The position numbers and the translations under genes were made by a program. A DNA stretch of 24,000 bases from Candidatus Heimdallarchaeota archaeon (GTDB lineage Archaea > Asgardarchaeota > Heimdallarchaeia > Heimdallarchaeales > JAJRWK01), in assembly GCA_027001645.1 (NCBI GenBank), contig JALTMP010000180.1:12197-36196 (forward strand), given 5' to 3'. Positions 1-20,302 of the stretch are shown one piece after another (positions within the stretch are counted from its first letter, which is position 1; each line of letters opens with the position of its first letter). Under the pieces are notes generated by a model. That model was given only the letters and a program-made list of their open reading frames with translations. It was not told the DNA's origin and did not search any database.

Positions 1-1635
1 AATTGTTTTTACGATCTGCTGTTTTTCTAGATATATCAAGACAGAATCTATATCCGCTTGTGCTTCTGAACGAAACATTGAATGGAGAACATGGAGGGGA
101 AGAGGATTCCCTAATATTCCAAGAGCAGAGAGAATATTTTTCCCTATCATTTCAAGATCTTGGGGTATTCTCAGGAAAGCAAGGTCCCGAATAAGACGAG
201 AAAACTCAATGTTCTCATTATATCGTGGTATGTTTCTTTCGGTAATGGGGCACCGGGAAAGAATAAAACTTGCCTCTTCTGGGGTAATCTTTCTCAAATC
301 GATTCTGAGAGGGGCATCAGCCCCTGAAGTTTGGATAAAGCCAAGAACTCTCTGCCCGCCCATTGTTGTTTCGTCAACTGACAAGATTAAGCAAAGATTG
401 GGAGAATTGAGACTGAGCAGTCGAAGAATATTTAGCTGTTGTTGGAGGCTAGCAAGATGAGCATTGTCGATTACTAAGCTGATTTTGTAGTGTTTTGCAA
501 TCTCAACGACAACAGTTTGAAGAAGAGTCCAGATTTTGTAATTTGTTATTGAGGATGAAGCGATTCCACGCCTTGCAGCATCAAGTGATTTCTCTATCAT
601 GAGTAAGCCTGTTTTTCCAAAAATGGTTCGTAATTCATCTTTGCTAAATTTTGCTCGAAAATTTTCTAGAATGAGGTTAATGTAAGTAACTTGATACCAA
701 TGTATCCCAAAAAAATTGACGCTCAAATGAAAGAACCCTTCCTTCGTGAGGGTTGAAGCAATGGCATTACAATATGCTGTCTTGCCTACTCCCGAACCTC
801 CAGAAATAAGAATCGTCGTTGGCTTGTTCGCGTTGTGGCGTTCTTTCACCTTATGCGTGATGTAGGTTAATGATTTGACGTAGTCGTTGAAGTCAGGGTA
901 GTAAGTAATCTGGCCCGTATTTTCGAATTCAGCCTTTCCACCAAGCTGAATCAATACTTCCTTGGCGTCCTTGGGTCTCTGAGATTTGCGAAACGCAACT
1001 AGCTTATTAATTTGGGAAGCAAAAATTTGAGGGATGGATGGATTCAAATCTTCAATTTTAGACGTGATCCCATTCAAAACATTGCTCTTGATAACATTGC
1101 GATTGAAATGATCGAAAGGATTTCTACCCGTAAAAATTTCAAAAAGAACTATTCCCAGATTGTAGAGGTCGCTTCTGGCATCAAGTAAGCCTTCAAACAT
1201 AGATTCAGGGGGTCGATATTGAATAGGGAGGGTGATTTTTGGATTGAGGAATGAAGCACCATAAAGTGACAATTTTCCGTGATATTGCGTTCCGGAAGGA
1301 GTATCCTCTGCAACAATGCGGAGAGAGCGAGGGACTATATGACCATGAAGAAAACCATTTGAATGCAAAACGTGGAGTGCAAGCAACCAGTCAATTAACA
1401 CCTGTTTGATTTCTTCTTCTGAAAGATTACTTATCTCAGTAGCATCAAGCGTATCTTTGATAATGTAAATAACCCTTAGATCAGAATCTCTTGTTGCCAT
1501 TGTAGCATTTATTTTCGCAAAAAGCCGAGGATACTCATTGGAGAATCTCCTCAGAGTTTCTATTTTTTTGAGAACGTAAGAGAGATCGCTTCCGCACTGG
1601 ATTAATAGCTCCTGACTATCATCCTCCTTCCGCAT
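1..1635 (-). CDS. Degenerate protein-kinase-like domain fused to an AAA/STAND-type P-loop NTPase. The N-terminus is complete and the C-terminus runs off the left edge.
   Basis: My own translation; this ORF is absent from the supplied track because it is open-ended. ATG at 1635-1633, in-frame stop upstream at 1665-1663, and no stop down to position 1 (545 codons). Kinase C-lobe-like strings: ALHVLHSNGFLHGHIVPRSL (HGH at 1339-1347), KLSLYGASF, YRPPES, SDLYNLGIVLFEIFTGRNPF. P-loop GGSGVGKT at 778-801. Walker-B-like SLVIDNAH at 457-480. A helical/winged-helix-like tail follows (LSALGILGNPLPLHVLHSMF). Confidence 0.75.
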   Translation of the reverse strand, partial: MRKEDDSQELLIQCGSDLSYVLKKIETLRRFSNEYPRLFAKINATMATRDSDLRVIYIIKDTLDATEISNLSEEEIKQVLIDWLLALHVLHSNGFLHGHIVPRSLRIVAEDTPSGTQYHGKLSLYGASFLNPKITLPIQYRPPESMFEGLLDARSDLYNLGIVLFEIFTGRNPFDHFNRNVIKSNVLNGITSKIEDLNPSIPQIFASQINKLVAFRKSQRPKDAKEVLIQLGGKAEFENTGQITYYPDFNDYVKSLTYITHKVKERHNANKPTTILISGGSGVGKTAYCNAIASTLTKEGFFHLSVNFFGIHWYQVTYINLILENFRAKFSKDELRTIFGKTGLLMIEKSLDAARRGIASSSITNYKIWTLLQTVVVEIAKHYKISLVIDNAHLASLQQQLNILRLLSLNSPNLCLILSVDETTMGGQRVLGFIQTSGADAPLRIDLRKITPEEASFILSRCPITERNIPRYNENIEFSRLIRDLAFLRIPQDLEMIGKNILSALGILGNPLPLHVLHSMFRSEAQADIDSVLIYLEKQQIVKTI

Positions 1636-1765
1636 GGTCTTCACTTTTTCTTTAGAATGAGATTATATCTAACTTTTCACAAGGTAATCTTGATCTTTTG
1701 AAAGCATCACAAAAAACAACATAATTCAGGCATAGGATCGCAAGAATCGCTGATATCGTTCTGAC

Positions 1766-2263
1766 CTACAAGAAATCTTGAGAAGAAGGCGACGAACTAG
1801 AGGGAACCGGACCGAGTGTATGTTCGAGGGCGAGAATAATTGAAAACATAGCTCGATTAACTGCATCAATCGCATGGGCAAACAGTGTCTTAGTTAGACC
1901 ATCTTCATATGCAATATGAGCAATGCCCACACCGGTTACCTCTGTCACAGGCTTTCCCGGAGGAAGAAGAAGAAAACTTACGGGAAGAAGATTAACATCT
2001 CTTCTAACATTATACCAGAAGCTTTTCTTTTGCTCAGGCTTGAGGCTTTGTAATTGCTGAATATGGTTCGGATGGAATTTCAAGGCGGCAGCTACATCCA
2101 CCCTATCAGGTTGTTTCTCCGGAATTTTCACTTCAATATAACGCTGAGGAGCAATTTCTATGACAACACTATAAAGAAATCCTTGCTTAGGTACATCTCT
2201 TTTGAAAAAACCCATCTCTGAGATCCATTTATTCAATTTGGAAGCTAGCGTAGATTTAGGCAC
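1766..2263 (-). CDS. Hypothetical 165-aa protein with a Ser/Pro-rich C-terminal tail, located immediately upstream of the pseudokinase-NTPase on the same strand.
   Basis: ORF track entry with a GTG start at 2263; an alternative ATG lies at codon 17 (MGFF). The composition looks protein-like. The alpha/beta pattern is vaguely reminiscent of YbjN/chaperone-like small proteins, but I cannot confirm this. The start codon is uncertain. Confidence 0.55.
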   Translation of the reverse strand: MPKSTLASKLNKWISEMGFFKRDVPKQGFLYSVVIEIAPQRYIEVKIPEKQPDRVDVAAALKFHPNHIQQLQSLKPEQKKSFWYNVRRDVNLLPVSFLLLPPGKPVTEVTGVGIAHIAYEDGLTKTLFAHAIDAVNRAMFSIILALEHTLGPVPSSSSPSSQDFL

Positions 2264-2422
2264 AGAAAAAGTAAGGTAAGGAATGGATTAAAACTTTCTA
2301 TTGATACCAGAAGGACATACTTTGCGAATACAAGCAAATCTTTGTAATATGATCACTTTGAAGCAACTCTCCAATTGATTTAAGAAGCTCTCAATTCCCA
2401 AGTAGATACGAAAGGGGTAAAA

Positions 2423-4336
2423 ATGTCGAAACTGGCTCATGACATCTCTCATTTGGGTAACGTGCTAAGGGCACGAGCTGTATCCCAGATCAGAGAACAT
2501 TCCACACAATTTGCCAACATACCAGAGTTTTACCGAGATCAATTGAGTCATGTAATTATTCAGAAATGGGATCCTGAAAACGCAATTGCTACTGCGAAGG
2601 ATCTGTTCGGAAAAACAAAACTACGATATGCGGCAATTGATGGAACCGAAAGAACAGATCCCACGTTTGACCTAATGATTTTTTATGGGGGGGCATATGC
2701 TGCTCTAGGATCAATTGACTTGGAAATTAGAGAGCCAATTCAAAGCGTTACGATTGATTCTCAATTAACGACAGGAGGCGTTGGGGTAGCAGCTTGTATT
2801 CCTGTATACATTTCAGAGATACCTGAAATTGAACTGGCAAGACTGAAATTTTCCCATGAGAAAGAAGATCAAAAAGAAACCAGAACAATTAACGATATCT
2901 TTGACGAAACCGTCATTGATAATTCTCAGATCGCTAATGACATTATGTTACTGGCAGAAATCAGACTTGGGGAAACACTGGCTAAAACGAAACACTACGA
3001 CGTGATTATTCTAGATCGCTATTTAGCCGGCACACATGCTAACCTGTTAGCAAAAACAGTTAGTTTCAACTCATATGAGCAAGAAAGTAGCTTAATTGGG
3101 TTAGAAACAGAATTCGGAGAAGTTACTAAAGCAGATCTTTGGTTCAATCGATATCGGCCATTCAATAAAAGAATAGACATCCCACCCCCGAGGGGCGAAT
3201 ACCTTTCCCATAGAATCTTTTTTGAATTAGAACAAAGAGAAGAATTGTCATTAAGTCAGCTAATAGAAGAATTCGGACTCTCAGATTCCCCCAGAGTCAT
3301 TGGTCGAGTCAAAAAAGCAATCGAACTCTTAGAGAAAAATGACGTCGTGACCGTGATTGGAGAAGGAAAAGAAACCGAAATAATCCTTTCAGATACTTAT
3401 AAGCAGTCATTTGCAAGAATTTTAGCCGCAAAAGAAACCATTGTGTCCAAATTATTTGATTTGGAGGACAAGGACACAAACCCACTTAGGATTGATGTTA
3501 AAGGAGAAAAAAGATGGCTAACTACTGTAGATCTCGCCTTGCTTTCTCTGTTCAGCTTCAATTCACTGGTTCATGAAGCACAAACAAGACCTTTCTTACT
3601 AATTGGGATAACAAAAGATACGTATAGCCGCGATTTTCGTAATCAGTTCTTGAATTTTCTCAATGCGTTTCCTGAGTCTCCCGTAAAAATCGATATGAAA
3701 ACAAAGATGGCCCTCCCTCAAACAGATAGAGGATTACTCCAAGCTGTCTCACACGTGGTCCTTGATGAGTTACATCCCCCCTGGGCAACCCAAGAATACG
3801 ATACTGCATTTAGAACCATGGGTCCAAAAAAAGGAGAATTATGGCCAACAATGTCTGGAAGCCATCAAAACATAATATTATCTGAAAGGCTTTTCGTAAA
3901 ATCTTTTATTCAATTGAGAGAGGGAAAAACCAATCCCGAACTTCGATCTACTGTACTCATGACAGATAGAGTCGTTCTTGAAAAAGATCTAAAACACGCG
4001 ATTAGGTTGCCTAACTTAATTCACCATTATCGGGGGATAAGCGAACACGTGCGTCCTTTAGTAATGCCGGCGAATGCAAAAGATAATCCAATACAGAATT
4101 TAATCATGCGAATCTTGACGCTCCTCGACGCTCCCTCAATTCCAGAAGCAATGGGACACAACAAACCACTATTTGTAGCAGACAAAGTATGTAAATGGTT
4201 TGGAGAAGTTTTTGGTGGTATTGTGTCCTCAACTAAGCAATGGATGGAAACACATAAGGACATAAGATCCTACGCATTCCACTTAACATCATTTAGGGAA
4301 AAAAGAACTGATTTTGAACAAACAAGGAAGGGATAA
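2423..4336 (+). CDS. nurA: NurA-like nuclease (637 aa) with a large internal insertion containing a winged-helix-like segment.
   Basis: Colinear NurA-family motifs as I remember them: RYAAIDGTE (AIDGT at 2633-2647), DIMLLAEIRLGE, YDVIILDRYL (2999-3025), LLIGITKDTYSRDF (3596-), PQTDRGLLQ, KPLFVADKVCKW near the C-terminus. SD-like AAAGGGG lies 5 nt upstream of the ATG. The stop lies 2 nt before the HerA-like start. Confidence 0.7.
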   Translation: MSKLAHDISHLGNVLRARAVSQIREHSTQFANIPEFYRDQLSHVIIQKWDPENAIATAKDLFGKTKLRYAAIDGTERTDPTFDLMIFYGGAYAALGSIDLEIREPIQSVTIDSQLTTGGVGVAACIPVYISEIPEIELARLKFSHEKEDQKETRTINDIFDETVIDNSQIANDIMLLAEIRLGETLAKTKHYDVIILDRYLAGTHANLLAKTVSFNSYEQESSLIGLETEFGEVTKADLWFNRYRPFNKRIDIPPPRGEYLSHRIFFELEQREELSLSQLIEEFGLSDSPRVIGRVKKAIELLEKNDVVTVIGEGKETEIILSDTYKQSFARILAAKETIVSKLFDLEDKDTNPLRIDVKGEKRWLTTVDLALLSLFSFNSLVHEAQTRPFLLIGITKDTYSRDFRNQFLNFLNAFPESPVKIDMKTKMALPQTDRGLLQAVSHVVLDELHPPWATQEYDTAFRTMGPKKGELWPTMSGSHQNIILSERLFVKSFIQLREGKTNPELRSTVLMTDRVVLEKDLKHAIRLPNLIHHYRGISEHVRPLVMPANAKDNPIQNLIMRILTLLDAPSIPEAMGHNKPLFVADKVCKWFGEVFGGIVSSTKQWMETHKDIRSYAFHLTSFREKRTDFEQTRKG

Positions 4337-4338
4337 AA

Positions 4339-6204
4339 GTGATTACAGAAGAAACTATGAAAAAATATTTCACGGATATGGATGGGAAGCTAAAAGCTAG
4401 GCTTTCTCATGTTCTCTTAGCAAGGACATCTTATGACCGAAGCACACAAGGAGTATCCTCTAAGTATAGTTGCATTGTAAAAATACAATACCACAAGCAG
4501 TTAATGGCAGAACTAGAAGAAGGCATGCTTTTTGCAGTTGAAAACTTTCGCTCAAAAGATGACAATCGCCGGTTTACTCTCATGGAAATCTCTAGGGTCT
4601 ATCCTGAACATTATGGATTAAAGGGCCTATCTGATTCCAGCTTTTACCCGCTTCAATTTGAGGTTATAGAGCAGTCTAGAGCGGACTGGGAGTTCAACGA
4701 TCCTAATACCATGATTATTCATGCATACTGCATTCCGGTCAACTACGAACTGATAATTGATTCGAAGGGCGAAATCTCCTTCAAGAAAGGATTTGTGTAT
4801 CCGATTGTTGCGGAAAAGGCGTATATCGTAAATAAGGAAATCATTGACCACATGTATAATGATAAGGTTAGGCAACGAATGAATTGGGATATTGCAAAAA
4901 CAACGAGTCACTCGGAAAAAGACCCAAGACTCGGGGTCATCAAAATGTTCGAGGGGCAAGGAGAAATCCCCATTTATGTTGATTTTGATCGTCTTGTAAG
5001 ATATCATTTTGGGATTTTCGCATTCACAGGGGGAGGGAAAAGCAATCTCATGTCAAACCTATTGCGAAGGCTGATCAAACACACAAAGGATACAAAAATT
5101 GTTATTTTTGACATTAGCAATGAATACGTTTGTTTGTTGCTTGATCTCTTCTCTGATCCAACCATTAGCGCAACAGTTGTTCTTGATGAAGAAGTAACCA
5201 ATAAAGAGCAATTCTATACCAGTTTCGCCAAACCCCGTAGCCTAGAAGATGCAGACTGGCTTAAGCCCACATTTGACAAAGTGTGGGAAATGAAAGATCG
5301 TGTCCGATTCCTTCAGCCTGACGAGGCGGGTCGACCAACATATCAATCACTCATAAGAGACCTAGAGCTACTGCGAAGAGATAATGCAGAAAAGCCAACC
5401 AACTTGCGTGCGATTCAGGAAGTAACGGATAGTCTGAATCATATAATCCTAGAAAACAAAGTTTCCACAAACACTGCCGTGAGTCCACAAATATTGTTGG
5501 AATTTGCGGAAAAAGCACTGCAGATATTCCAAGAATACAAGGTGTGGAATCGCAGTGCTCTCTTCACCTGGGCAGAAACTCTCCCACGCGTTGCTTCTCG
5601 AATTGAGGCTGCAGAAGAAATCCCCTTTGACCCCCGAAAAATCACAGCAAAAGAGTTACTAGATCTCATTGAAGGAGAGACTAGACTTGTTTGTCTATCT
5701 ATAAGTGATCCTGTGATTTTAAAGAAACTTGCAACAGAACTTACCTATCAGGCCCTACACCGAAGGAAGAAGCAATTCAAAACCTCTCCGCAAGTTCTCT
5801 TCGTATTTGATGAAGCACAAGAATTCATCCCAAATGCGTCATCAGGAATAAATCAAGACGTTTCAAGAGCAGTAGAAATGCTCTTGAGACAAGGAAGAAA
5901 GTATGGACTAGGGGGTTGTATTGCTACACAACGATTGGCATACCTTAATACTAATGCCTTACAACAACTACATACCTATTTTGTGGGAACTCTCCCGCGA
6001 CCATATGATAGAGGGGTTGTTAGCGAGCAGTTCATGATCGACATTGGTATTCTGGAAAAAACGCTAGAATTTGGACCCGGAGAATGGCTGCTAAGTAGCT
6101 ACATTGCGACTGGTATCGAAAATGTTCCTATCTTTATCAAAGCTGATGATTCCGAAAAAGAACTGGAAAGATTGATTTCCAAACGAAAAAGCAAGGCGAG
6201 ATAG
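4339..6204 (+). CDS. herA: HerA/FtsK-superfamily (DUF87-type) hexameric ATPase/translocase homologue (621 aa).
   Basis: GTG start preceded by AGGAAGGG. The N-terminal region is barrel-like (LFAVENFRSKDDNRRFTLMEISRV). Walker A is FGIFAFTGGGKSNLMSNLL (5020-5046), followed by KIVIFDISNEY. Walker B is QVLFVFDEAQEFIP (5794-5826). RKYGLGGCIATQR is typical of HerA-like proteins. Confidence 0.85.
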   Translation: MITEETMKKYFTDMDGKLKARLSHVLLARTSYDRSTQGVSSKYSCIVKIQYHKQLMAELEEGMLFAVENFRSKDDNRRFTLMEISRVYPEHYGLKGLSDSSFYPLQFEVIEQSRADWEFNDPNTMIIHAYCIPVNYELIIDSKGEISFKKGFVYPIVAEKAYIVNKEIIDHMYNDKVRQRMNWDIAKTTSHSEKDPRLGVIKMFEGQGEIPIYVDFDRLVRYHFGIFAFTGGGKSNLMSNLLRRLIKHTKDTKIVIFDISNEYVCLLLDLFSDPTISATVVLDEEVTNKEQFYTSFAKPRSLEDADWLKPTFDKVWEMKDRVRFLQPDEAGRPTYQSLIRDLELLRRDNAEKPTNLRAIQEVTDSLNHIILENKVSTNTAVSPQILLEFAEKALQIFQEYKVWNRSALFTWAETLPRVASRIEAAEEIPFDPRKITAKELLDLIEGETRLVCLSISDPVILKKLATELTYQALHRRKKQFKTSPQVLFVFDEAQEFIPNASSGINQDVSRAVEMLLRQGRKYGLGGCIATQRLAYLNTNALQQLHTYFVGTLPRPYDRGVVSEQFMIDIGILEKTLEFGPGEWLLSSYIATGIENVPIFIKADDSEKELERLISKRKSKAR

Positions 6205-6241
6205 TAGCAAGGTTTTAGAAAGGAAAAAAAGACTTGCCGTT

Positions 6242-6805
6242 GTGTATTTACAAGGTCATATTGGTGTATCTGCGCTAATCTTGCACTTCTTGGAAAAAAA
6301 GGGAATAAAAATTATTTTTCCCGTGGCTCTTTTTTCATCAATGCTTCCAGATTTTATTGACAAGCCTCTTGAGTTTCTTTTTCTCTTACCAGGAAGGTTC
6401 GTTGGCCATATGATCTTAACATGGCTCATTGTCGTAATGCTTGGAAAGGGAATCGCTACAAGAATGAATCGACCCGACGTGTTCATTTATTCTTATAGCC
6501 TGGCATTGGGGGCAATGTTGCATATAATTGAAGATTTTAGGGATCCTATTCTTTTGAGAACTGTTTTCTGGCCATTATTTGGCTGGTCTCTACCCTCACA
6601 AAATGGAAGATTTGATTTCCTTCTTGGGTTAAAAGATCCGTATTACGCTGTTCTTGAAGGAATTGGCTTAGCACTAGTTTTTCTTGTCGGAATCGATAGA
6701 GGCTGGGAAAAAGAGGAATTCATAAAACTGGGCGGGATACTGGTTGCTTACTGGATACTCTATCTCTCGTTTTACGCAATTTTCATAGGCATCCAAATAA
6801 ATTAG
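6242..6805 (+). CDS. Polytopic membrane protein, YdjM/DUF457-like putative metal-dependent hydrolase.
   Basis: GTG start after GGAAAGGAAAAAAAG. About 5-6 hydrophobic helices. His/Asp-containing strings lie at helix ends: N-terminal LQGHIG, LPDFIDKPLE, FVGHM, LHIIEDF. This pattern resembles the LexA-regulated YdjM family. The assignment is by pattern only. Confidence 0.55.
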   Translation: MYLQGHIGVSALILHFLEKKGIKIIFPVALFSSMLPDFIDKPLEFLFLLPGRFVGHMILTWLIVVMLGKGIATRMNRPDVFIYSYSLALGAMLHIIEDFRDPILLRTVFWPLFGWSLPSQNGRFDFLLGLKDPYYAVLEGIGLALVFLVGIDRGWEKEEFIKLGGILVAYWILYLSFYAIFIGIQIN

Positions 6806-6853
6806 CACAATTAATTATTGAACTAAATGACCCTCATTGCTGAGAAAAATAGT

Positions 6854-7660
6854 TTACTTGAGTTGTTCTAACATCAACTGCTCTCTTTCTTTGTAATGAT
6901 AGGCGGGTCGCATTTCCTCGATAGCTTCCATTATTCGGTTCACAATTAATTGGGAAGCTTCCTTCCCTTGTGGCAAGTCATAGTAATCTTCAAGAGGAAC
7001 CGGGCGACCGTATTCAACCGTAATCTTGATCTTGCGAAAGCCTGGTCCCTTGGTAGGCATTTTTCCTACGGGCATGGCTAGCTCGGCCCCATCGATAAAC
7101 ACGGGAATGATTGGGGCTCTTGTCGCATGGGCAATCCAGCCAGCACCTAATCTGCCTGGGTTGAGGGTTCTCATCCAGGGCTGCTTGTGTCTTTGACCTT
7201 CGGGGAACCAGAGCAAGTCCTTGCCTCTCTTGACTAACTCGATAGCATATTTGACGACGTGGATCTGTTTTGCACCTTTTCTTACTGGAAACGCATTGAG
7301 GTTTGAGAGGAACCACGAGCTGAGGGGATGCTTGAAAAGCTTTTCATCAGCCAGAGCATGAATTTTTCTTTGAGGGAAAAATCCTTTTCCTACTAGGAAA
7401 CCATCCAAATGGCTAATATGGTTGGGCATGAAAATAACGTTTCGGCGAGGAACGCGCTCGCGACCAATGTACTTAATCTTCCACATGATGTCGAAAGAAG
7501 TACTTAGGAGGGGACCAACTAGATAATACAAGGCTTTTCTCGTTTTAAAGGTGTATCGGAAATAGTCGGTGGCACCAGCCTTGGTCGTAGGTGTGAGCGG
7601 ATATTGCGAAGGTCGAGCTCGCTTGGAGATGCTCTGACTCTCAGCTTTCCGTAATGTCAT
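6854..7660 (-). CDS. plsC: 1-acyl-sn-glycerol-3-phosphate acyltransferase-like (PlsC/LPLAT family).
   Basis: Acyltransferase motif I NHISHLDG (HX4D), motif III FPEGQRH, and motif IV APIIPVFIDG, all colinear and correctly spaced. Confidence 0.85.
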   Translation of the reverse strand: MTLRKAESQSISKRARPSQYPLTPTTKAGATDYFRYTFKTRKALYYLVGPLLSTSFDIMWKIKYIGRERVPRRNVIFMPNHISHLDGFLVGKGFFPQRKIHALADEKLFKHPLSSWFLSNLNAFPVRKGAKQIHVVKYAIELVKRGKDLLWFPEGQRHKQPWMRTLNPGRLGAGWIAHATRAPIIPVFIDGAELAMPVGKMPTKGPGFRKIKITVEYGRPVPLEDYYDLPQGKEASQLIVNRIMEAIEEMRPAYHYKEREQLMLEQLK

Positions 7661-7678
7661 GTGTGAAGATCAGACTAC

Positions 7679-7689
7679 AAATATAAAAA
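7679..7689 (-). promoter_or_regulatory. TATA-box-like element (minus-strand TTTTTATATTT) upstream of the plsC-like gene.
   Basis: The AT element lies about 18-20 nt upstream of the ATG at 7660, and no SD-like sequence intervenes. This is consistent with an archaeal promoter giving a leaderless or very short-leader mRNA. Confidence 0.4.
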
Positions 7690-7845
7690 ATATTCGACAA
7701 CGAGCCTTTTTCCTCGCAAAATAATGGTTTTCTGTGGTAAAATATGTACTACTGCGCGGGTACGTGGCTCGGGAGAAACGATCTAGTGCAAGATTTAGAC
7801 GCACTTAGAAAAAAAGAAGTAAAAACGAGAAAATTTGCGCTTGAT

Positions 7846-10416
7846 TCATTCAAGGAAATCAGTCGCTAACATTTTTCCCTTTCTCTGAATTAGCAATGCC
7901 CTTACATCACGAATGATCCAAGATAGGATCGCTAAGCCGATCAAGGAGAATAGAAATAATTTCAGGAGTTGAGAACCATTGTCTCGGGAGAGAAGAGAAC
8001 CGACACTGAATGAGGATTTAACTAGCTCGAGAACAAATTCGTCGTACACTAATTTTACTAAGTACCGATTTGTGGCATCATAATATCGCGTGAAGCCTTC
8101 CGTGTCCTCCACCCGCAGAACAGAATGCTTGGATCCGTCTGACAGCGTTATGGTGGTTTTTTCGACAACTACTCCAAACGAAGGAGACCCCCATTCTGCG
8201 AGATAAATGTCACTCACAGCAACATCTGGAAGAAAGAAAGGATTCCAACTGAAAGGGGTCGTTATGTCGAGCCATGAGCCCAAAATATTAGACGGACGCA
8301 AAAGAACAGTGCCATTATCTATTGTTCTTAGAAAACTTCGAGTAACAAATGTGTCATTCACGGTGGCAAAGAAAAGATTGAAGGCATTTTCTGCGAATGT
8401 AAGCTGGAGAAACTTAGAGGTTGAAACATAATGATAAATTGGAAGGAGCTCCCCCTCAAAAGAATAAGTCATTCTCTGAGAAACAAAATCCTTCGGCGTT
8501 GAAGGCACTTGAAGCCCAAAAGAGATGGTGAAGTTACTGGGATACAAAGTTAACTGATATTCGAGAGACGAGGACTTACCAATGGATGGCAGGGAATTAA
8601 AGTAAACGTCATTTGTGCTACGAAAACTTTGTCCACGAACATTCACAGTTCCAAGACTGACCGGGGGCAAGAGGGATCTTGCGCCCAATAATGTTCTCAA
8701 ATCAAAAGAGATGTGAAACTGCTCAGAGACACCCTCTGATTCTATTTGCGAGGAAGAAATAAGGGGAAAAATCATACGAAGAGGGTAGTCATGCACTCCG
8801 GGTTGCAATTGGATGGGTGTGACTCGAAGAGGAAAAATACTCGAGGAAGATCGGCCTTCAGATGTTTGCGGTCCAACTCTTGCAAATAAAGTAGTAGCAA
8901 CGGATGAATAAATGGTAATTGTTGTTGAAAACTCTAAGAACCCCAAGGATGGGGAAAAAGTAGGCTTATTTATGCTCAAAATCTCAACACTAGTTGCTTC
9001 CCAAGATTCAAGAACAAAAGCGGGAAGTGAATCAATGGTTTCTGCAGGTATCCCATCTTTGTACAAAGCATCAATCTGTGTGACCATAAAGGGGGCAATT
9101 AGAGGATCAGAAGAACTGCCGTATGAGACCTTTGAGAAAAACCATGAGGACGGGAATTCTCCTGAATAGATAGAAATATTCTGATTGCTTTTGGTTTTAG
9201 GTAGAACAATGGGGATTGGTATTCCTAAAACAGTTAGCATAACCATCGGATATGTTGAATTGAAAGCTTGGACCGTGATTCGAATGGTTTCATAGGCCGT
9301 ATTGTTATCTTTGTCAAGTGGAGTGAGAGTTATTTCTGCCTTTTTTTTGGGAGACTGAAGAATTGAAGAAGTGATTTCAGATTTGATCTTGTCGAGCGGG
9401 ACTGAAAGCTTAAGCGCAGTGTTAAGATATAGATTTTTGCCAGAGTAAACCGTTTCCATAATTGCGTAGAGTGGAAAGAGGACAAGAGCATCCCCCGGGG
9501 TGCCAGATAACGCATAGGTAATTAATTGGGTGATCTCACCAAAAGGAATCTCAACGCTAAAAGAAGAGTTCTGTATTTGAATGGGAATCGCTTCATAGGG
9601 TTCTTTAATGGGGGTAGTTTGAGAAATCAAAAGATTCGAATCATTTTCTTCTTTAAGGAAGAGGGCTGAGGGGGGAACTACGATTGGCATCGGTATGAGC
9701 CACGCAGAAAGAGAAGATAACGAAAAGCGGGGTTCTACTATTCCTCTGAATGTTAGAACATTTAGACCGTTCGTTCCTTCTCTAGAAACCTCTTGGACTG
9801 CAAAAACAGGGTCAAGCATTTCTATTTCTATAAGACCGATCTCTTGCATCTCTCGGTTCTCGAGAATCGTTAGTTGGATCGATAAGGGTGGCCGAACAAA
9901 AGTAGCAAATATGCTAAGTTTAGCTTGGAAACGCAAGGAATCAATTTCTGGACCCATTATTTCCTTGGGATCACGAATTAGGAAAGGAGAGTTTTGGAAG
10001 GGGAAGAATAACTCAGCAGTAACAAATTTATTTACACCGGGATCTTGAAACTCGATTTTCGAAGAAGGAAAGGGATAGGAATCAATTTCTGTTAGCAATA
10101 AGGAAGACGTATCATTTGATATTAATATGAGCTTTCCATTAAATTCAATTGCATTAACCCCCAATTGTGGGAATTCAACAAAAAGAGAAAACACAACACT
10201 AATCCCATCAATTTTTCCGTTACCATTAGCGTCATGTAATCTCGTATTAACAATTTGCAAATCCGAGAAGTCTGGTGAAGCGACAACAGAAGTGCTATCA
10301 GTAAGAGGAGTCGTCGGAACAAACAAGTGAATAAGAAATGGTGACGTAAAAGTGGCTAGCAATAGCGTTGCTAGAATAGCAATGAATCCTACCAACACAA
10401 CGGGGGTTCGCTTCAT
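7846..10416 (-). CDS. Large (856 aa) secreted or membrane-anchored surface protein of unknown family.
   Basis: N-terminal hydrophobic signal/anchor (VVLVGFIAILATLLLATF). C-terminal TM helix plus basic tail (LFLFSLIGLAILSWIIRDVRALLIQRKGK). The body is Ser/Thr/Pro-rich and looks beta-rich, with several N-x-S/T sequons. A Ca-binding-loop-like DANGNGKID lies at 10207-10233. Confidence 0.75.
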   Translation of the reverse strand: MKRTPVVLVGFIAILATLLLATFTSPFLIHLFVPTTPLTDSTSVVASPDFSDLQIVNTRLHDANGNGKIDGISVVFSLFVEFPQLGVNAIEFNGKLILISNDTSSLLLTEIDSYPFPSSKIEFQDPGVNKFVTAELFFPFQNSPFLIRDPKEIMGPEIDSLRFQAKLSIFATFVRPPLSIQLTILENREMQEIGLIEIEMLDPVFAVQEVSREGTNGLNVLTFRGIVEPRFSLSSLSAWLIPMPIVVPPSALFLKEENDSNLLISQTTPIKEPYEAIPIQIQNSSFSVEIPFGEITQLITYALSGTPGDALVLFPLYAIMETVYSGKNLYLNTALKLSVPLDKIKSEITSSILQSPKKKAEITLTPLDKDNNTAYETIRITVQAFNSTYPMVMLTVLGIPIPIVLPKTKSNQNISIYSGEFPSSWFFSKVSYGSSSDPLIAPFMVTQIDALYKDGIPAETIDSLPAFVLESWEATSVEILSINKPTFSPSLGFLEFSTTITIYSSVATTLFARVGPQTSEGRSSSSIFPLRVTPIQLQPGVHDYPLRMIFPLISSSQIESEGVSEQFHISFDLRTLLGARSLLPPVSLGTVNVRGQSFRSTNDVYFNSLPSIGKSSSLEYQLTLYPSNFTISFGLQVPSTPKDFVSQRMTYSFEGELLPIYHYVSTSKFLQLTFAENAFNLFFATVNDTFVTRSFLRTIDNGTVLLRPSNILGSWLDITTPFSWNPFFLPDVAVSDIYLAEWGSPSFGVVVEKTTITLSDGSKHSVLRVEDTEGFTRYYDATNRYLVKLVYDEFVLELVKSSFSVGSLLSRDNGSQLLKLFLFSLIGLAILSWIIRDVRALLIQRKGKMLATDFLE

Positions 10417-10492
10417 TATGCGTTAGTTGGATTCCGACCATCATAAGTATTCTCAATCTAGGTCAAGAGAAGGAAAGGAAAACTATGGCTGA

Positions 10493-11899
10493 TTATTCGC
10501 CTGGAAAAACCATGCGCCGAAGGTCTAAAGCAACGTCAAGTTCTTCTGGGGAAAGAATCCCTTCATCCAAGGCAACTTCACGAATTGTTTTTCCCTCTTC
10601 GAAGGCCTTCTTAGCAATTCTTGCAGCATTATCGTATCCAATGTACGGATTGAGTGCGGTAGCTAACATGAGGGATTGCTCAACAAGGAAACGAATGCGA
10701 TCTTCATTCGGTCTGATACCTTTAACGCATCGCTCATTGAATGAGAGCATGGCGTTACGGAGAAGGTTAACTGATTCCAGGACATTATAGGCAATGAGGG
10801 GCTTTGCAGTATTTAGATCAAATTGTCCACCAAAGAATCCACCAATAGCTACCGCTTGATCATTCCCTATAATTTTCATGCATACTTGCACAAGCATTTC
10901 TGCTTGCGTTGGATTAACTTTTCCTGGCATTATTGAAGATCCCGGTTCGTTTGCTGGAAGAATCAGTTCACCGATCCCACAACGAGGACCAGAACCAAGG
11001 AGACGAATATCGTTTGCAATCTTGATTAAAGCCACTGCCAGAGTTCGAATGAGGCCAGACAGGGTTACCATCTTATCATGAGCGGCAATATCTGCAAAAC
11101 GATTCTTGGCCGGAGCAAAGGGCAGTTGTAACTCTTCTTTCAAGTACTGACAAGTTTTTTCGGCTAACTGGGGATGGGCATTTAGACCCGTCCCCACAGC
11201 AGTTCCTCCAATCGGAAGTTCGCACAGAAGAGGAATTAATGCTTCTAAATTCTTCTGAATCGATAGAAGTTGTGTTGCATATGCACTGAATTCTTGGCCA
11301 AGAGAAATGGGAACTGCGTCTTGAAGGTGTGTTCTACCAATCTTTATGATTTCCATATATTCGTGAGCTTTTCTCTCCAGTTCTTGCTTAAGTGTTTCAA
11401 TAGCGGGAATTAATTGATCTCTAACTGCTAAAGCTGCGGAAATGTACATTGCTGAAGGAATAACATCATTCGAGCTTTGCCCACGATTCACGTGATCATT
11501 AGGATGGACAGGATGTTTTTTGCCTCTTTGTCCGCCCAAAAGCTCGCTTGCAAGATTTGCAATCACCTCATTAGCGTTCATGTTTGTTTGTGTGCCACTT
11601 CCTGTCTGAAAGACATCTATGGGGAACTGATCCCACATTTGTTTTTCCAGAATTTGCGTTGAAGCCTGAATTATCCCGTCTGCGATTTCATCATTGAGCT
11701 CACCTAAGTCCTTGTTTGCTTTTGCAAGAGCCCTTTTGAGTCGGATTAGAGATTCTAAGAAAATAGGGGGAAAAACAATCCCGCTAATCGGAAAATTCTC
11801 TATTGCTCTTTGCGTTTGGGCTCCCCATAGTGCTTCATTTGGAACTTTCACAGAACCTAAGCTGTCGGTTTCAATACGATAGTTTTCCATGTTAATCAT
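10493..11899 (-). CDS. fumC: Class II fumarate hydratase.
   Basis: The N-terminus RIETDSLGSVKVPNEALWGAQTQRAIENF is FumC-type (LWGAQTQR). The superfamily signature GSSIMPGKVNPTQAE (10904-10942) is the FumC-like variant rather than the AspA-like one. SSNDVIPSA and TGSGTQTNMN motifs are present. The true start may be the second in-frame Met (MENYRIE). Confidence 0.93.
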   Translation of the reverse strand: MINMENYRIETDSLGSVKVPNEALWGAQTQRAIENFPISGIVFPPIFLESLIRLKRALAKANKDLGELNDEIADGIIQASTQILEKQMWDQFPIDVFQTGSGTQTNMNANEVIANLASELLGGQRGKKHPVHPNDHVNRGQSSNDVIPSAMYISAALAVRDQLIPAIETLKQELERKAHEYMEIIKIGRTHLQDAVPISLGQEFSAYATQLLSIQKNLEALIPLLCELPIGGTAVGTGLNAHPQLAEKTCQYLKEELQLPFAPAKNRFADIAAHDKMVTLSGLIRTLAVALIKIANDIRLLGSGPRCGIGELILPANEPGSSIMPGKVNPTQAEMLVQVCMKIIGNDQAVAIGGFFGGQFDLNTAKPLIAYNVLESVNLLRNAMLSFNERCVKGIRPNEDRIRFLVEQSLMLATALNPYIGYDNAARIAKKAFEEGKTIREVALDEGILSPEELDVALDLRRMVFPGE

Positions 11900-12053
11900 T
11901 CTTAGTAAAGAAATTGCAATTAAGTAATTGTTGAATCCTCCGAGTTTTTTGATCCGAAGTAAAACCGCAGTTTGAAAAAAATATTATTCTACTCGAAATG
12001 CTTTCACATAAGGACATTCTTACATTGTCATCAGAAAATTTCGAGGAATCGGC

Positions 12054-13514
12054 ATGTTCGGAGAATTTGGCACAGAAGAGGATCTAAGAAAAGTCGCGGA
12101 CACGATCTATTCTATCATCACAAACCATTATGCGCAGCTTTCTCAGGGAGATGTTTTCCCGTCAGATGAAGAATTAATACGGACGATGACAGAAGTCCAT
12201 TCCACATCTTTTCCGGACGAACCATCGCTTTCAATCGATAACCTAGGAGATTGGCTTTGGCAAATTCGCAAAAGGAGCCTAGCTGTCTGGCACTCTCGAT
12301 ATGTTGGACATATGGACAGCGGGATTATTCCTGAGCTGAGTTTTGTTGATGCTTTTATTTCAGCCCTAAATCAGAATCTCCTTGCGTGGGAACTAAGCCC
12401 TATTGCCACATACATTGAAAAGCAAGTTATCAAGTGGTTCGTGGGCAGATTCGGCTTACCCCAAGACACTGCCGGCGGTACTTTTGTAAGCGGAGGAACA
12501 GTTGCGAATCTTACGGGATTATTTCTGGCGTTGTATAAGCGGTTCCCGAATGCAATCCGAGAAGGGATTAGAAATCTTGCTCCCACTGCAATCTTTGCAA
12601 CACAAGAGATACATTATTCAATTGTCAAAAGCGCTTCTATTCTTGGTCTTGGCACAGATTCCATTGTTTCGATTCCAACTACCGATTCTGGTACCATTGA
12701 CTTGAACGAACTCGAAAAAGCAATAGACGAATCCGATAGAATCCCTCTTGCGATCATTGGAGTCGCAGGGGTAACAAATTCAGGAGCAATTGACCCGTTG
12801 AGTGAAATCGGGAGAATTGCGAAGAAAGAGAAGGCTTGGTTCCATGTGGATGCTGCTTATGGCGGAGCTCTAATATTATCTGAAGAACACAAAAACAAGC
12901 TAAAAGGGATTGAACAAGCCAACTCAATCACTTTTGATCCACACAAGTGGCTTTGGTTTCCCAAGAGTACCGCAATGATTATTGTTCGGGATCAAGCAGA
13001 TCTTCAATTGTTGGATCATCAAGCTTCCTATATGCCAGTGCATCCAAGCAATGTTTCTGAAACAGGAATTGATAAGAAAAGCCTAGGAAAGCAGACCATT
13101 CAAGGAAGTAGGCGGTTTGACGCGTTTCGCATTTGGTATGCCTTCCAGCGATTTGGTGTAACACCTTTTGCACAAGGGATCACGCGGACCATTGAATTAG
13201 CACAACAAATCAGTCTTTACGTTAGTCAAGATAAACGAATTCTGCAACTGTTGTTTGAGCCAGAAACTAATATCGTATGCTTCAAAATCAATTCTTCAAT
13301 CGTTTCAAGCTTAAAACAGCGTGAAAGATTGACTAAATTGGCTCATGAAAGACTAGAAGCCTCCGGAAAAGGCTGGGTTTCCAGAACAATCATCAAGAAC
13401 GAGCCAGTACTAAGAATGGTCATATTGAATCTCAACACTCGGCTTGATGACCTGAAAAAAATAGTCGATTCTTTAGAAAACTTTCTCTCTGCTGAAATTG
13501 AAAGACGACAATAA
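12054..13514 (+). CDS. Pyridoxal-phosphate-dependent group II amino-acid decarboxylase.
   Basis: SGGTVANL, HVDAAYGG, and the PLP-lysine motif SITFDPHKW (DPHK at 12936-12947). Length is 486 aa. Substrate (Tyr/Asp/Glu/diaminobutyrate) cannot be assigned by eye. Confidence 0.88.
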   Translation: MFGEFGTEEDLRKVADTIYSIITNHYAQLSQGDVFPSDEELIRTMTEVHSTSFPDEPSLSIDNLGDWLWQIRKRSLAVWHSRYVGHMDSGIIPELSFVDAFISALNQNLLAWELSPIATYIEKQVIKWFVGRFGLPQDTAGGTFVSGGTVANLTGLFLALYKRFPNAIREGIRNLAPTAIFATQEIHYSIVKSASILGLGTDSIVSIPTTDSGTIDLNELEKAIDESDRIPLAIIGVAGVTNSGAIDPLSEIGRIAKKEKAWFHVDAAYGGALILSEEHKNKLKGIEQANSITFDPHKWLWFPKSTAMIIVRDQADLQLLDHQASYMPVHPSNVSETGIDKKSLGKQTIQGSRRFDAFRIWYAFQRFGVTPFAQGITRTIELAQQISLYVSQDKRILQLLFEPETNIVCFKINSSIVSSLKQRERLTKLAHERLEASGKGWVSRTIIKNEPVLRMVILNLNTRLDDLKKIVDSLENFLSAEIERRQ

Positions 13515-13558
13515 TTTACTTTAAAGCGAATCTCAGAGTATATGGTAAAACACGGTGA

Positions 13559-15028
13559 TTGTCAGAAATGTCTGATAGACAAACAGTTCATGCACAAATT
13601 AGAAATGTATTCGAAAGGGAACTAGGAATCGAGTTTCTTCCCGAGGAACGGGCCGAGTTAGAGGAGTTTAGCAAAGCAGTGAATCATCGAGAAAATATAA
13701 TCATCGGATACGTACATCAACTTGATGATCACCAGGTTATTCTGCGACCCTCGCTTTTTTCTCTTAACAAATCAATCATTTGTGTTTTAGGAAGAGAATT
13801 AGAACCACCTCCCAATAACGCAAAAATAAAGGCCGATGGGAAGTGGAAGAGAATCCCTTATCTCGAAAAGAACGAATACAAATCTTCTGATGTTTTTCAG
13901 ATCTTTTCTTGGACGATTCTTCCAAGGCCCATTGTAGAACTGCCCCTCTCCTATGAAGAGGTTCTCTCTTTTTTTGTCGATGATATGGGAATTGAGTTCA
14001 AAGATCCATACCTAGCAAATAGACTTCTCTATCATGATGCCTTGCTGGCAAACGCAATTAGTGCAGCTCCGATTCCTGAACGAATGATAGGAGGGTTATT
14101 CTCTACAGTAAGCTACCTGAATAATTACAAGACATTAGCACAGCGAGCATTGTCCCGAATTCGAAGAATGGTTCCCAGTACACAGCTTCGCAAGAGAATG
14201 GGGATGAGGTCTGTTGAATTTCATTATTACAAACTAATGGACGTTAGAAAAATCAGAGAACAAAAATCTCTATTAACCCGAAGAACGAGACTTCTCAGCC
14301 TAGAACCGTTAAGCGAAATTTCAGCCAGCTTCCACTTGCATGAAGCGAAGATAGAAAAATTCGCCTCAAAGAAATTTTATGGAGACATTAACTTTCTTTT
14401 ACCTCCCACTCTTCAAGTGAGAAAGAATCTTCCCACAGAAGAAAAACTTCTTTTTGAATATAGCTCTCTCTTCTCGGACAAGGCCGTACTTCCAGCAACA
14501 TTACACATTCCCCTTTTCTTCATTGCTACTCACATCAATATGCCAATAATTGAACATGCTACAATTAAGAGCGAAGAAAGGCTCGTTTCTAGGGAATTAG
14601 AAAAAATAACAAGTGAAATTCCCTCAGTTCTGATTGGGAAAAACAAACTAATCGATCCTTCTCGTTTGTCAGAGCAAGCAATAAGAACAGCTAGTTATCT
14701 CTCGCGCCGTGTTCACTCACAAAAAACGGATGAAAAAACCGTCCGGGCAGCACTAGCGCAAATCTTTGAATTGTCAAACAAGTTTATCGAAGATTTATCA
14801 TTACATGAAAAAATGGGAACCCCAAAACTAAGTTCCATGCAAGCAACTATTCTCAAAGCAATCGAAAGGCTTAGCCCAAATAATGAACCAATAAACAAAA
14901 AAGAAGTTATTCAAGAATTGGAGAAAAAAAGGTTTTCACGAGTTGAATTAGAACAGGAAATTGAAAAAATGCTTAACATGGGATTGATTTATGTCCCTGC
15001 TCCCGGCAAAATTAGAATCGTAAGATAG
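13559..15028 (+). CDS. MCM-derived protein with decayed AAA+ motifs and a retained C-terminal winged helix (489 aa).
   Basis: The track start is TTG at 13559. ATG at 13568 with GGTGAT 8 nt upstream is the more likely start. Colinear resemblance to archaeal MCM: ISAAPIPERMIGGLF vs SIAPSIYG..LFGG; YLNNYKTLAQRALSRIRRMVP vs GDPGTAKSQ.L..v..aPR; KKFYGDINFLLPPTLQVRKNL (14399-14428) vs NP.fGRY...nI.LPPTILSRFDL; IDPSRLSEQAIRTASYLSRR....TDEKTVRAAL vs It.RQLEalIRlsEA.Ak..l...Vt.eDa..Ai; C-terminal WH ...EIEKMLNMGLIYVPAPGKIRIV. That this is a real CDS is high confidence. The family call is moderate confidence. Confidence 0.55.
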   Translation: MSEMSDRQTVHAQIRNVFERELGIEFLPEERAELEEFSKAVNHRENIIIGYVHQLDDHQVILRPSLFSLNKSIICVLGRELEPPPNNAKIKADGKWKRIPYLEKNEYKSSDVFQIFSWTILPRPIVELPLSYEEVLSFFVDDMGIEFKDPYLANRLLYHDALLANAISAAPIPERMIGGLFSTVSYLNNYKTLAQRALSRIRRMVPSTQLRKRMGMRSVEFHYYKLMDVRKIREQKSLLTRRTRLLSLEPLSEISASFHLHEAKIEKFASKKFYGDINFLLPPTLQVRKNLPTEEKLLFEYSSLFSDKAVLPATLHIPLFFIATHINMPIIEHATIKSEERLVSRELEKITSEIPSVLIGKNKLIDPSRLSEQAIRTASYLSRRVHSQKTDEKTVRAALAQIFELSNKFIEDLSLHEKMGTPKLSSMQATILKAIERLSPNNEPINKKEVIQELEKKRFSRVELEQEIEKMLNMGLIYVPAPGKIRIVR

Positions 15029-15146
15029 AGAAAATGTTTGAAGTTGTCTATCTCTTTTTCCATTCATCTCCAAATAATCTAGCCTTGAACACAAACGACG
15101 CGGATGTTCAACAGTTCCTACCATCTGAGGTTATCGATTCATAGGA

Positions 15147-17720: not shown

Positions 17721-17883
17721 TTCACTCCTCTCTCCATATTAGTCACATTCGAATCAACTAAGAACTTTCAGCCCAAATATGATCCAGTTCTGTTTTTTCA
17801 AGAAAGCCCTTTTTCATTGTGTTTTACAGACAAAAAATACGCATTCAAAACGCACCATCATGCATTGCTAAGAGGAATAATAC

Positions 17884-17958
17884 GCTCCCAGGCTATGGGG
17901 GGCATGCCCGGGAGCCACTTCGATGCACTCGCGACCTCGCGGAGTGAGCATGAACTCC
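17884..17958. ncRNA. Candidate small structured RNA or structured UTR element: a GC-rich island with nested hairpins in the polB/EndoV-like intergenic region.
   Basis: Locally about 65% GC in a roughly 40% GC background. Stem GCTCCCAGGC (17884-17893) pairs with GCCCGGGAGC (17906-17915) with 1 mismatch. Perfect palindrome GGGCATGCCC at 17900-17909. Hairpin CACTC-GCG-ACCT-CGC-(G)-GAGTG at 17926-17946. Alternative stem GGAGT/ACTCC (17941-17945 / 17954-17958). Neither family nor strand could be assigned. Confidence 0.25.
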
Positions 17959-18065
17959 ATGAAATTTTAATATTTCAATGGAACGCTCCTTCTGGAACGT
18001 ATGTTCTATAATATTTGGTCATCCCATTCTTTATAAATCCATCGGCGCCACCTTTTACACTACTT

Positions 18066-18659
18066 CTAAACTGAAAATGACCGATCCTTTGAAAAATACG
18101 TTTTCACGGCATGACGTGCAAAATTTCGAAAGGGTAGCGACGCATGGTTCCGGTGTATCTTTTGAACAATCCATTCAAGCTCCTCCAATTCAACTCCCCA
18201 ACCAATTGAATAAAAAAAACCCTTTTTCAGCTCTCCTCTCAGAACTGCAAACCCTGTCTGCTCTCCTCTTGTTTCTAACTTATAGAGTTGCATCCCATAG
18301 TAACCCAAGTCCCCAACGAAATCTGTAACCCTGCTGTATGGTAGCAAACTATGGGCGACCCCTATTGACTTTACTCCCAAGGCCGCGCCTATACTACAAG
18401 CCAATCCCCAAAAGCGAGGATGTGCTTGGCCGTGTCCCAAAACCAATAAGAAATCATAATTTTCCGTAAAACGAGATATGAGATTTATCCATTCGTTCGC
18501 TTCATGCCATGCCCTCTCTTGTGAGACATAGCGTAGCTGAGAAGTATTCTGATATAAACAGGCCTTATCAATTAATCCTCTTTGAAGGTCCCACAACACA
18601 ATACAGCATCTGACCATTGAATCTTGAGCCTGTAAATACGGGAATAATATCTTCTTCAT
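18066..18659 (-). CDS. Endonuclease V-like protein (197 aa), short and with non-canonical active-site positions.
   Basis: [37 protein letters not shown] ([10 protein letters not shown] at 18414-18443) aligns to the EndoV core DGxGxxHPRxxGxAsHxGxxxxxPtIGvAK. Leu stands where the conserved Asp is expected, and His where the AK Lys is expected. The N-terminus is about 25-40 aa shorter than E. coli or Thermotoga EndoV. The start lies 16 nt downstream of the WD40 stop. Confidence 0.7.
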
Positions 18660-18675
18660 ACTTCACTAAACTGCT

Positions 18676-20058: not shown

Positions 20059-20082
20059 ATTTCATGCTAGTAAATGATTTCA

Positions 20083-20092
20083 TATTATAAAA
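20083..20092 (-). promoter_or_regulatory. TATA-box-like element (minus-strand TTTTATAATA) upstream of the WD40 gene.
   Basis: The element lies 24 nt upstream of the ATG at 20058 with no SD-like sequence between. This spacing is expected for an archaeal promoter producing a leaderless mRNA. Confidence 0.4.
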
Positions 20093-20302
20093 GAATCCGT
20101 GGAAGAATGGCTGATTGATGGAGCCGAGTGACTCGACTCAGTTCATCGATCCCCCAAAGGGTACTCCCTGGGTCTTAAGGTTCTCGACTCCAAGAACTGG
20201 TCGAAAATCCAAAGTATAAGCATTGTTATGGGTTCGCATAGGACCAATCTCACCTTCTTCCCCCAAACTTGTTTGAAACTTCTGGCGGCCCTTTTTCAGT
20301 AA

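Follow-up and report, generated by a model that had tools for sequence, protein, structure and literature searches.

The question raised by this locus is whether five neighbouring genes form one molecular system or whether a smaller conserved unit is embedded among unrelated genes. The genes lie at the left end of a 24,000-nt stretch of DNA, here called the window, from Candidatus Heimdallarchaeota archaeon (assembly GCA_027001645.1, contig JALTMP010000180.1, positions 12,197-36,196 of the forward strand; the full contig around the window is labeled L001). They encode a kinase-like NTPase (kinase-NTPase) and a DUF2299 protein on the minus strand and a long NurA-like nuclease, a HerA-family ATPase and a YdjM-family membrane protein on the plus strand. 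HerA-NurA is the textbook archaeal end-resection machine and sits with Mre11-Rad50 in the thermophiles that have been studied; to our knowledge, nearly all work on it has been done in such organisms. An original prediction made for this locus had joined all five genes into one sensor-plus-effector module. The genes and their identities were confirmed at the coordinates given there, and profile searches bore out its domain guesses (a dead kinase with AAA_16, DUF2299, NurA-like, HerA/DUF87 and YdjM); the module itself was not borne out. The results instead point, with high confidence, to the NurA-like/HerA-like gene pair as the functional unit.

The evidence against a five-gene unit comes from co-occurrence. 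The five window proteins were run by tblastn against 87 loci encoding a relative of the NurA-like protein, approximately 82 of which are independent. The HerA-like gene was adjacent to the NurA-like gene in 85 of these 87 loci. The kinase-NTPase and the YdjM protein (74% identity) recurred only in L011, a 90% identical sister genome that keeps all five genes, and the DUF2299 protein recurred only in L011 and in L004, a Heimdallarchaeota relative with 61% identity. The orthologous locus of L004 has kept the NurA-like and HerA-like genes and has neither the kinase-NTPase nor YdjM, with its DUF2299 gene located elsewhere, beyond an acyltransferase gene on the other side of the pair. Lack of co-occurrence had been named beforehand as the refuting condition for the module; because the five genes do not co-occur beyond their own lineage, the five-gene module is refuted by the original prediction's own criterion. 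The kinase-NTPase, DUF2299 and YdjM genes are unrelated, lineage-specific neighbours and bystanders of the pair. An AAA_16 protein and a 204-aa protein in L007 were also considered as an analogous STAND-plus-small-protein unit and were set aside, having no similarity to the window proteins.

The pair itself is widespread. The NurA-like family was traced via 18 close proteins, a full HMMER pass and a scan of GTDB species genomes with a 9-sequence alignment, yielding 577 representatives at 50% identity in the HMMER pass and at least 303 loci that carry the NurA-like gene in GTDB species genomes. The 80 loci retrieved are mostly from Bathyarchaeia, the remainder including Heimdallarchaeota, Jordarchaeia, Ca. 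Borrarchaeum, Freyarchaeota, Wolframiiraptor and Hadarchaeota. NurA-like followed by HerA-like is the conserved gene order, and in most loci the called open reading frames (ORFs) share 23-44 nt; in the window, the HerA-like gene starts 2 nt past the NurA-like stop, as originally described. One to three unrelated genes lie between the two in five loci (L022, L025, L050, L059 and L064), and in L064 no HerA-like gene was found downstream of the NurA-like gene. A consistent third gene in this position was rejected because the insertions in these five separated loci are miscellaneous (DUF998, acylphosphatase, GATase_4, a helix-turn-helix (HTH) protein and polyprenyl synthetase). Between this genome and Bathyarchaeia, the HerA-like proteins are 50-55% identical and the NurA-like proteins 33-38% identical; the HerA-like protein is far better conserved than its NurA-like partner. 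In a neighbour-joining tree, the Heimdall clade stands on a long separate branch. No paper describing this long NurA-like/HerA-like family was found in the literature, and no mre11/rad50 genes adjoin the pair, in agreement with the earlier suggestion that it is an undescribed arrangement distinct from the canonical resection operon.

Two groups of loci stand apart in this survey. Metagenome-assembled genomes labeled as bacterial (L076, Ca. Sulfotelmatobacter, and L084, Dormiibacterota) nest within Bathyarchaeia clades of the NurA-like tree, and L076 additionally has the Bathyarchaeia oxidoreductase synteny discussed below; their bacterial labels are probably due to binning contamination. The most distant pair, found in identical gene order in three assemblies (L091-L093), has a NurA-like protein 24% identical to that of the window; the genes after this pair encode a 381-aa DUF6884 protein and several products that lack annotation.

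The first core component of the pair is the long NurA-like nuclease of 637 aa (2423-4336, plus strand), for which the existing annotation is 'hypothetical protein'. Its relationship to NurA is barely detected by sequence methods. The Pfam NurA family (PF09376) matches residues 125-206 only, with 17.3 bits (E=0.0035) against a cut-off of 21 bits, and is therefore below threshold; no PADLOC or NCBIfam match was obtained for the protein, and the family profile retrieved nothing at E<=10 from the PDB sequences, so that no sequence link to the solved NurAs was seen. Its identity as a NurA is settled by structure matches. An AlphaFold2 model built on 16 homologues, with a predicted local distance difference test score (pLDDT) of 80 and a predicted template-modeling score (pTM) of 0.84, was compared with the PDB by Foldseek, and the ten best matches were all NurA structures (including 9x1m_G, 3taz and 2ygk) from Thermococcus, Pyrococcus and Sulfolobus, with E values of 4e-9 to 5e-6 and template-modeling scores of 0.30-0.57 when normalised to the target. 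The 637-aa protein is thus predicted to have the NurA fold, which is RNase H-like.

The next Foldseek matches (ranks 11-27) are partial ones to MarR/ArsR/PefR and viral winged-helix proteins, and fit residues ~255-346 of the model. This region, encoded at approximately 3185-3460 on the plus strand as placed from the model and its matches, is predicted to be an inserted winged-helix (wHTH-like) domain; a helix-strand-helix-helix-hairpin pattern is present at residues 260-322, in the middle of the NurA core, and Pfam winged-helix families match the insert only faintly (HTH_24, MarR, HTH_27 and RuvB_C). Nine acidic residues are invariant in 16 members of the NurA-like family: D73 (in IDGT), E179, D198, D399, D435, D460, D515, E575 and D587 (in ADK). 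Of these, D73, E179, D198 and D587 putatively constitute the NurA acidic active site, as judged from their spacing and from the predicted fold; the 19 residues from E179 to D198 resemble what we take to be the spacing in canonical NurA.

The second core component, the HerA-family ATPase of 621 aa (4339-6204, plus strand), is more readily recognized, with existing annotations being at best 'ATP-binding protein' or 'HerA-like ATPase'. DUF87 (PF01935) matches it at 4e-20 with 73 bits, above the cut-off of 23, and the Walker A motif TGGGKS (residues 230-235) and Walker B residues D491-E492 are kept in at least 95% of 68 orthologues. The structure model is of moderate quality (pLDDT 67); every one of its 50 best Foldseek matches is a HerA chain, with both repair and defence complexes represented and E values down to 3e-15. 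A HerA fold comprising the HAS barrel, RecA-like core and helical bundle is accordingly what the model predicts. Against the NCBIfam HerA equivalog NF040819, the protein scores 57 bits, well below the cut-off of 970. Among PADLOC models, PDLC01055 ('HerA, Type III coevolved', 2e-41) scores highest, with mainly the C-terminal third being aligned.

By analogy with characterized complexes, the pair very probably constitutes a HerA-NurA-type translocase-nuclease. In the cryo-electron microscopy structure of Thermococcus kodakarensis HerA6-NurA2, double-stranded DNA is driven by six HerA subunits into a NurA dimer that parts the strands and cleaves them (PMC12977600). Because of the analogy with this solved complex, a similar mechanism is proposed for the pair: starting at a free end, an ATP-driven HerA hexamer would pull in duplex DNA and pass it to a NurA dimer seated on the hexamer face, with the HerA6-NurA2 stoichiometry carried over by the same analogy, and the separated strands would be cut by the metal-dependent acidic active site of the dimer. 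The winged-helix insert may add a DNA-binding or DNA-selecting surface. Lineage-specific additions to NurA have precedent, as the Deinococcus NurA has an extension that regulates its activity (PMC12977600).

Compared with the archaeal HerA-NurA complexes of Sulfolobus, Pyrococcus and Thermococcus (2ygk, 3tai, 4d2i and 9x1l), the pair shares adjacent coupled genes, both predicted folds, the Walker motifs, the expected HerA6:NurA2 mechanism and, putatively, a conserved acidic triad. It differs in that mre11/rad50 genes adjoin it neither in the window nor at ~80 related loci, and in that its nuclease is ~640 aa with a predicted winged-helix insert, as opposed to 320-450 aa. The nuclease also lacks a sequence match to the solved NurAs and falls below the Pfam NurA threshold, the HerA-like protein is far from the 970-bit equivalog cut-off, and the hosts are mesophilic or uncultured Bathyarchaeia and Asgard archaea rather than thermophile models. 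Stand-alone herA-nurA genes with no adjoining mre11/rad50 are known from Deinococcus radiodurans and Thermus thermophilus, where they are dispensable (PMC7776575). The pair resembles these bacterial systems in that respect, but its extension is a predicted internal winged-helix insert, in contrast to an N-terminal arm, and no sequence relationship to them was detected.

Several defence-related systems also contain HerA. A type III CRISPR-associated HerA/NurA pair has been described as clusters 57/58 of Shah et al. 2018 (PMC6546367); like the pair in the window, it is a HerA and NurA gene pair outside of a Mre11-Rad50 operon, and PDLC01055 is the best match of the HerA-like protein. However, the window has no type III cas genes or CRISPR array, and the NurA-like protein has no match in PADLOC. 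Sir2-HerA (Nezha), DUF4297-HerA and TdpAB likewise place a hexameric HerA ATPase beside an effector, with HerA folds that Foldseek cannot distinguish from the one modeled here, but the partner in the window is predicted to be a NurA-fold nuclease and not Sir2, DUF4297 or TdpB. Unlike these HerA-scaffold defence systems, most pair loci are outside of defence islands. In contrast to TdpABC, no tdpC-like modification gene is present in the window, and candidate tRNA-guanine transglycosylase (TGT) paralogues occur only in the distant loci L008 and L094.

The role of the pair was then judged from its surroundings. Among 217 immediate neighbours, the commonest Pfam families were MFS, GNAT, ribosomal protein S7, ABC transporters and tRNA synthetases, and the Mre11/Rad50 families were not among the commonest. 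When 139 upstream neighbours were compared with PADLOC, only a handful of plausible defence matches were obtained. In 25 of the 51 loci that could be judged, the same 2-oxoacid:ferredoxin oxidoreductase (POR) operon lies after the pair in convergent orientation, with NurA-like identity among the POR-linked loci reaching down to 57%; besides POR, no recurrent neighbour cluster was found in 82 loci. Scans of the viral contigs of IMG/VR returned no relatives of the pair. The housekeeping neighbours, the POR synteny and the empty viral-contig scans back a chromosomal, vertically inherited function.

The reading that we favour, with moderate confidence, is a conserved two-gene operon with three lineage-specific neighbours, in which the role of the pair is chromosomal DNA-end processing. 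In Bathyarchaeia and some Asgard archaea, the pair would be an accessory in recombination or repair, or would degrade broken DNA, without depending on Mre11-Rad50. On the narrower choice between genome maintenance and defence, our judgement inclines only slightly toward genome maintenance. Several observations weigh on the other side. The pair is not universal, and its Asgard distribution is patchy. With POR beta as the query, it was found to be absent from close relatives of the POR-linked loci (L096 and L109), and it was present in none of the five loci at 73-74% POR identity. Some pairs are in defence islands (L007 and L008) or in an integrase-bearing element (L094/L095). PDLC01055, the PADLOC HerA model with the best score, is of the type III CRISPR-associated kind, and the predicted active-site mapping rests on spacing and fold.

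A comparison of two individual POR loci illustrates the first of these points. In L096 (10948-20818), a metagenomic contig, the POR beta protein is 89% identical to that of L010, and neither the pair nor EamA is present within 9.9 kb downstream, so that the presence or absence of the pair varies among fairly close relatives.

These observations bear on the alternative that the pair is an autonomous anti-mobile-element system or the restriction arm of a modification-dependent system, with HerA loading on the ends of invader DNA, the NurA-like protein destroying that DNA and the winged-helix domain aiding the distinction of self from non-self; we regard this as possible but doubtful. It draws on three loci in particular. 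In L007 (Ca. Borrarchaeum weybense, 5907-21154 of a 905-kb contig), the pair begins 15 nt after a gene for a FokI-cleavage/Mrr_cat nuclease in an apparent defence island that also includes the AAA_16 and 204-aa proteins, a UDG gene, an AAA_5 McrB-like gene and its partner, an EVE gene and an N6/N4 methyltransferase gene. In the metagenomic locus L008, the pair is surrounded by several TGT paralogues and by genes for GmrSD, PIN-MazE and a HEPN-nucleotidyltransferase. In L094 (1514-21833) and L095, which are the same element, a divergent NurA-like/HerA-like pair is in an integrase-plus-HTH element with many small ORFs, and after the pair come HNH, two unknown genes, a TGT (possibly DpdA-like), MazG, a second TGT and an AAA_22 protein. 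Counterparts of two of these genes adjoin the pair at other loci, with 75% identity for the TGT in L008 (13745-15226) and 80% for the HNH in L015 (4595-5320), and the element may be a mobile 7-deazaguanine-related cassette. The type III association of the best PADLOC model (PMC6546367), the structural precedents for HerA-plus-effector defence (Sir2-HerA, DUF4297-HerA and TdpAB) and the variable presence of the pair among close relatives point in the same direction. However, most loci are housekeeping in character with few PADLOC matches upstream, the POR synteny has persisted longer than is usual for defence genes, and the HerA-like protein is strongly conserved from Asgard archaea to Bathyarchaeia. 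The window is free of defence genes, cas and methyltransferase genes included, and of CRISPR arrays, and the NurA-like protein matches no PADLOC model. A broader version of the immune reading, in which the pair is a widespread, so far overlooked two-gene immune nuclease of Bathyarchaeia and Asgard archaea and, in some lineages, a restriction arm linked to 7-deazaguanine (TGT/DpdA-like) modification, would be analogous to TdpAB acting with TdpC and is considered unlikely.

The integrase-plus-HTH element with its divergent pair and many small ORFs, together with the unannotated surroundings of the distant pairs in L091-L093, would also fit a role in the DNA metabolism of a mobile element itself, such as replication-linked end processing or the packaging of its genome by an FtsK/HerA-type motor with a nuclease, with chromosomal copies being domesticated or remnant. 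The lack of relatives on IMG/VR viral contigs, the lack of integrase or other mobile-element genes in the window and in most loci, and the stability of the chromosomal synteny make this improbable. Least probable, to the point of being nearly dismissed, is the five-gene reading, with a pseudokinase-STAND sensor, a DUF2299 adaptor, the NurA/HerA pair as effector and YdjM as a membrane effector. The genes are adjacent, share a divergent intergenic region and are all kept in the sister genome; PADLOC has kinase and HerA domain matches, and defence roles are known for both STAND NTPases and HerA scaffolds. Yet L004 lacks two of the genes and has the third elsewhere, ~80 other loci have none of the three, and the AAA_16 and small proteins of L007 are not homologous to those of the window. 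The kinase-NTPase is moreover an orphan, and a 130-nt gap with a TATA-like element lies 5' of its gene.

With regard to what these results mean, the pair is a separate, undescribed HerA-NurA family that combines a ~640-aa winged-helix nuclease with a highly conserved HerA, and not a new five-part system. Hundreds of uncultured Bathyarchaeia and several Asgard lineages carry this family, and annotators gain a name for genes that are now labeled hypothetical. The family also offers a compact two-protein target for studying DNA-end processing, or foreign-DNA destruction, that proceeds independently of the canonical operon in these archaea, and a false lead is removed, with the pseudokinase-STAND, DUF2299 and YdjM genes being bystanders.

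Turning to the control regions, the DUF2299 and NurA-like genes diverge from a 159-nt intergenic region (2264-2422), which presumably carries the putative promoter of the pair; an AGGGG Shine-Dalgarno-like motif is immediately 5' of the NurA-like ATG at 2423. A scan for bacterial-type promoters and terminators gave hits at chance level only and is not applicable to an archaeon. The spacers of 159, 2 and 37 nt agree with those originally reported, the last being the distance from the HerA-like stop to the gene for the 187-aa YdjM-family membrane protein (6242-6805, plus strand; PF04307, 5e-8, exceeding the Pfam cut-off). YdjM is a lineage-specific addition 3' of the HerA-like gene and is outside of the conserved unit.

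On the minus strand, the 165-aa DUF2299 protein (1766-2263; PF10061, 3e-22) precedes the kinase-NTPase (1-1635). The order of these two genes is as previously described, and one correction applies to the single leftward transcription unit proposed for them: the gap from the DUF2299 stop to the kinase-NTPase start is 130 nt and contains an ATATAAT (TATA-like) element ~27 nt 5' of the ATG, so the two genes need not share one transcript. The ORF of the kinase-NTPase, with its ATG at 1635-1633, runs past the left edge of the window, which holds the N-terminal 545 of 1136 aa; on L001, the full-length gene (2190-5600) encodes a pseudokinase-AAA_16 protein with faint TPR repeats at its end. Pfam matches are Pkinase (5e-9), AAA_16 (1.2e-7) and AAA_22, and the P-loop GGSGVGKT is present. 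In comparison with StkP, the alignment begins at the C-lobe, with no N-lobe (Gly-rich loop/VAIK) and no DFG, and HRDLKPxN is replaced by HGHIVPRS (HRD to HGH, catalytic-loop K to V, and N to S). Because these catalytic motifs are lost, the domain is a pseudokinase rather than an active Hanks-type Ser/Thr kinase, in line with the catalytically dead kinase first suggested. The order of kinase, AAA_16 P-loop NTPase and TPR matches that of PknK-like STAND proteins; the kinase-NTPase differs from them in lacking the N-lobe and catalytic residues, in being an orphan and in having its linkage to the pair limited to one lineage. In a search of 5.8 billion proteins, the full-length sequence retrieved only itself at E<=1e-10, which makes the protein effectively an orphan on sequence grounds. 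For the suspected link of the five proteins to defence, PADLOC returned matches for the HerA-like protein and the kinase, and none for the NurA-like, DUF2299 and YdjM proteins.

The remainder of the 24 kb is housekeeping, as had been noted, with genes for an acyltransferase, fumarase, a pyridoxal phosphate (PLP) decarboxylase, a family-B DNA polymerase (PolB), endonuclease V (EndoV), a WD40 protein, an M20 peptidase and malic enzyme. The reported absence of Mre11/Rad50 holds, as no Metallophos, SbcC or Rad50 match was found among the window proteins. Cas domains and methyltransferases or other defence proteins are likewise missing from this set, as are integrases and other products of mobile elements, and searches of the window for a CRISPR array, tandem repeats, tRNA and Rfam RNA/ncRNA found none. 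Two ORFs, of 856 and 489 aa, have no Pfam family above threshold. The 856-aa ORF (7846-10416, minus strand) was considered as a possible Rad50 and ruled out, as no Pfam match was found even at E<=1; PADLOC and NCBIfam likewise gave no match at E<=1, and it is 63% identical to its counterpart in the sister genome L011.

The surroundings of the pair in the Heimdallarchaeota relative L004 overlap with those in the window. Genes for the PLP decarboxylase, acyltransferase, malic enzyme, M20 peptidase, WD40 protein, an NTP-transferase and a homologue of the 489-aa ORF are also found around the pair in L004, with these common housekeeping genes being reshuffled in order and orientation; the 22-kb L004 locus lacks fumarase, PolB, EndoV and the 856-aa ORF. 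The 489-aa ORF (13559-15028, plus strand) has only faint C-terminal winged-helix matches (MCM C-terminus, RPA_C and DUF6293_C), and its homologue in the Heimdallarchaeota relative (L004/L012) is 51% identical.

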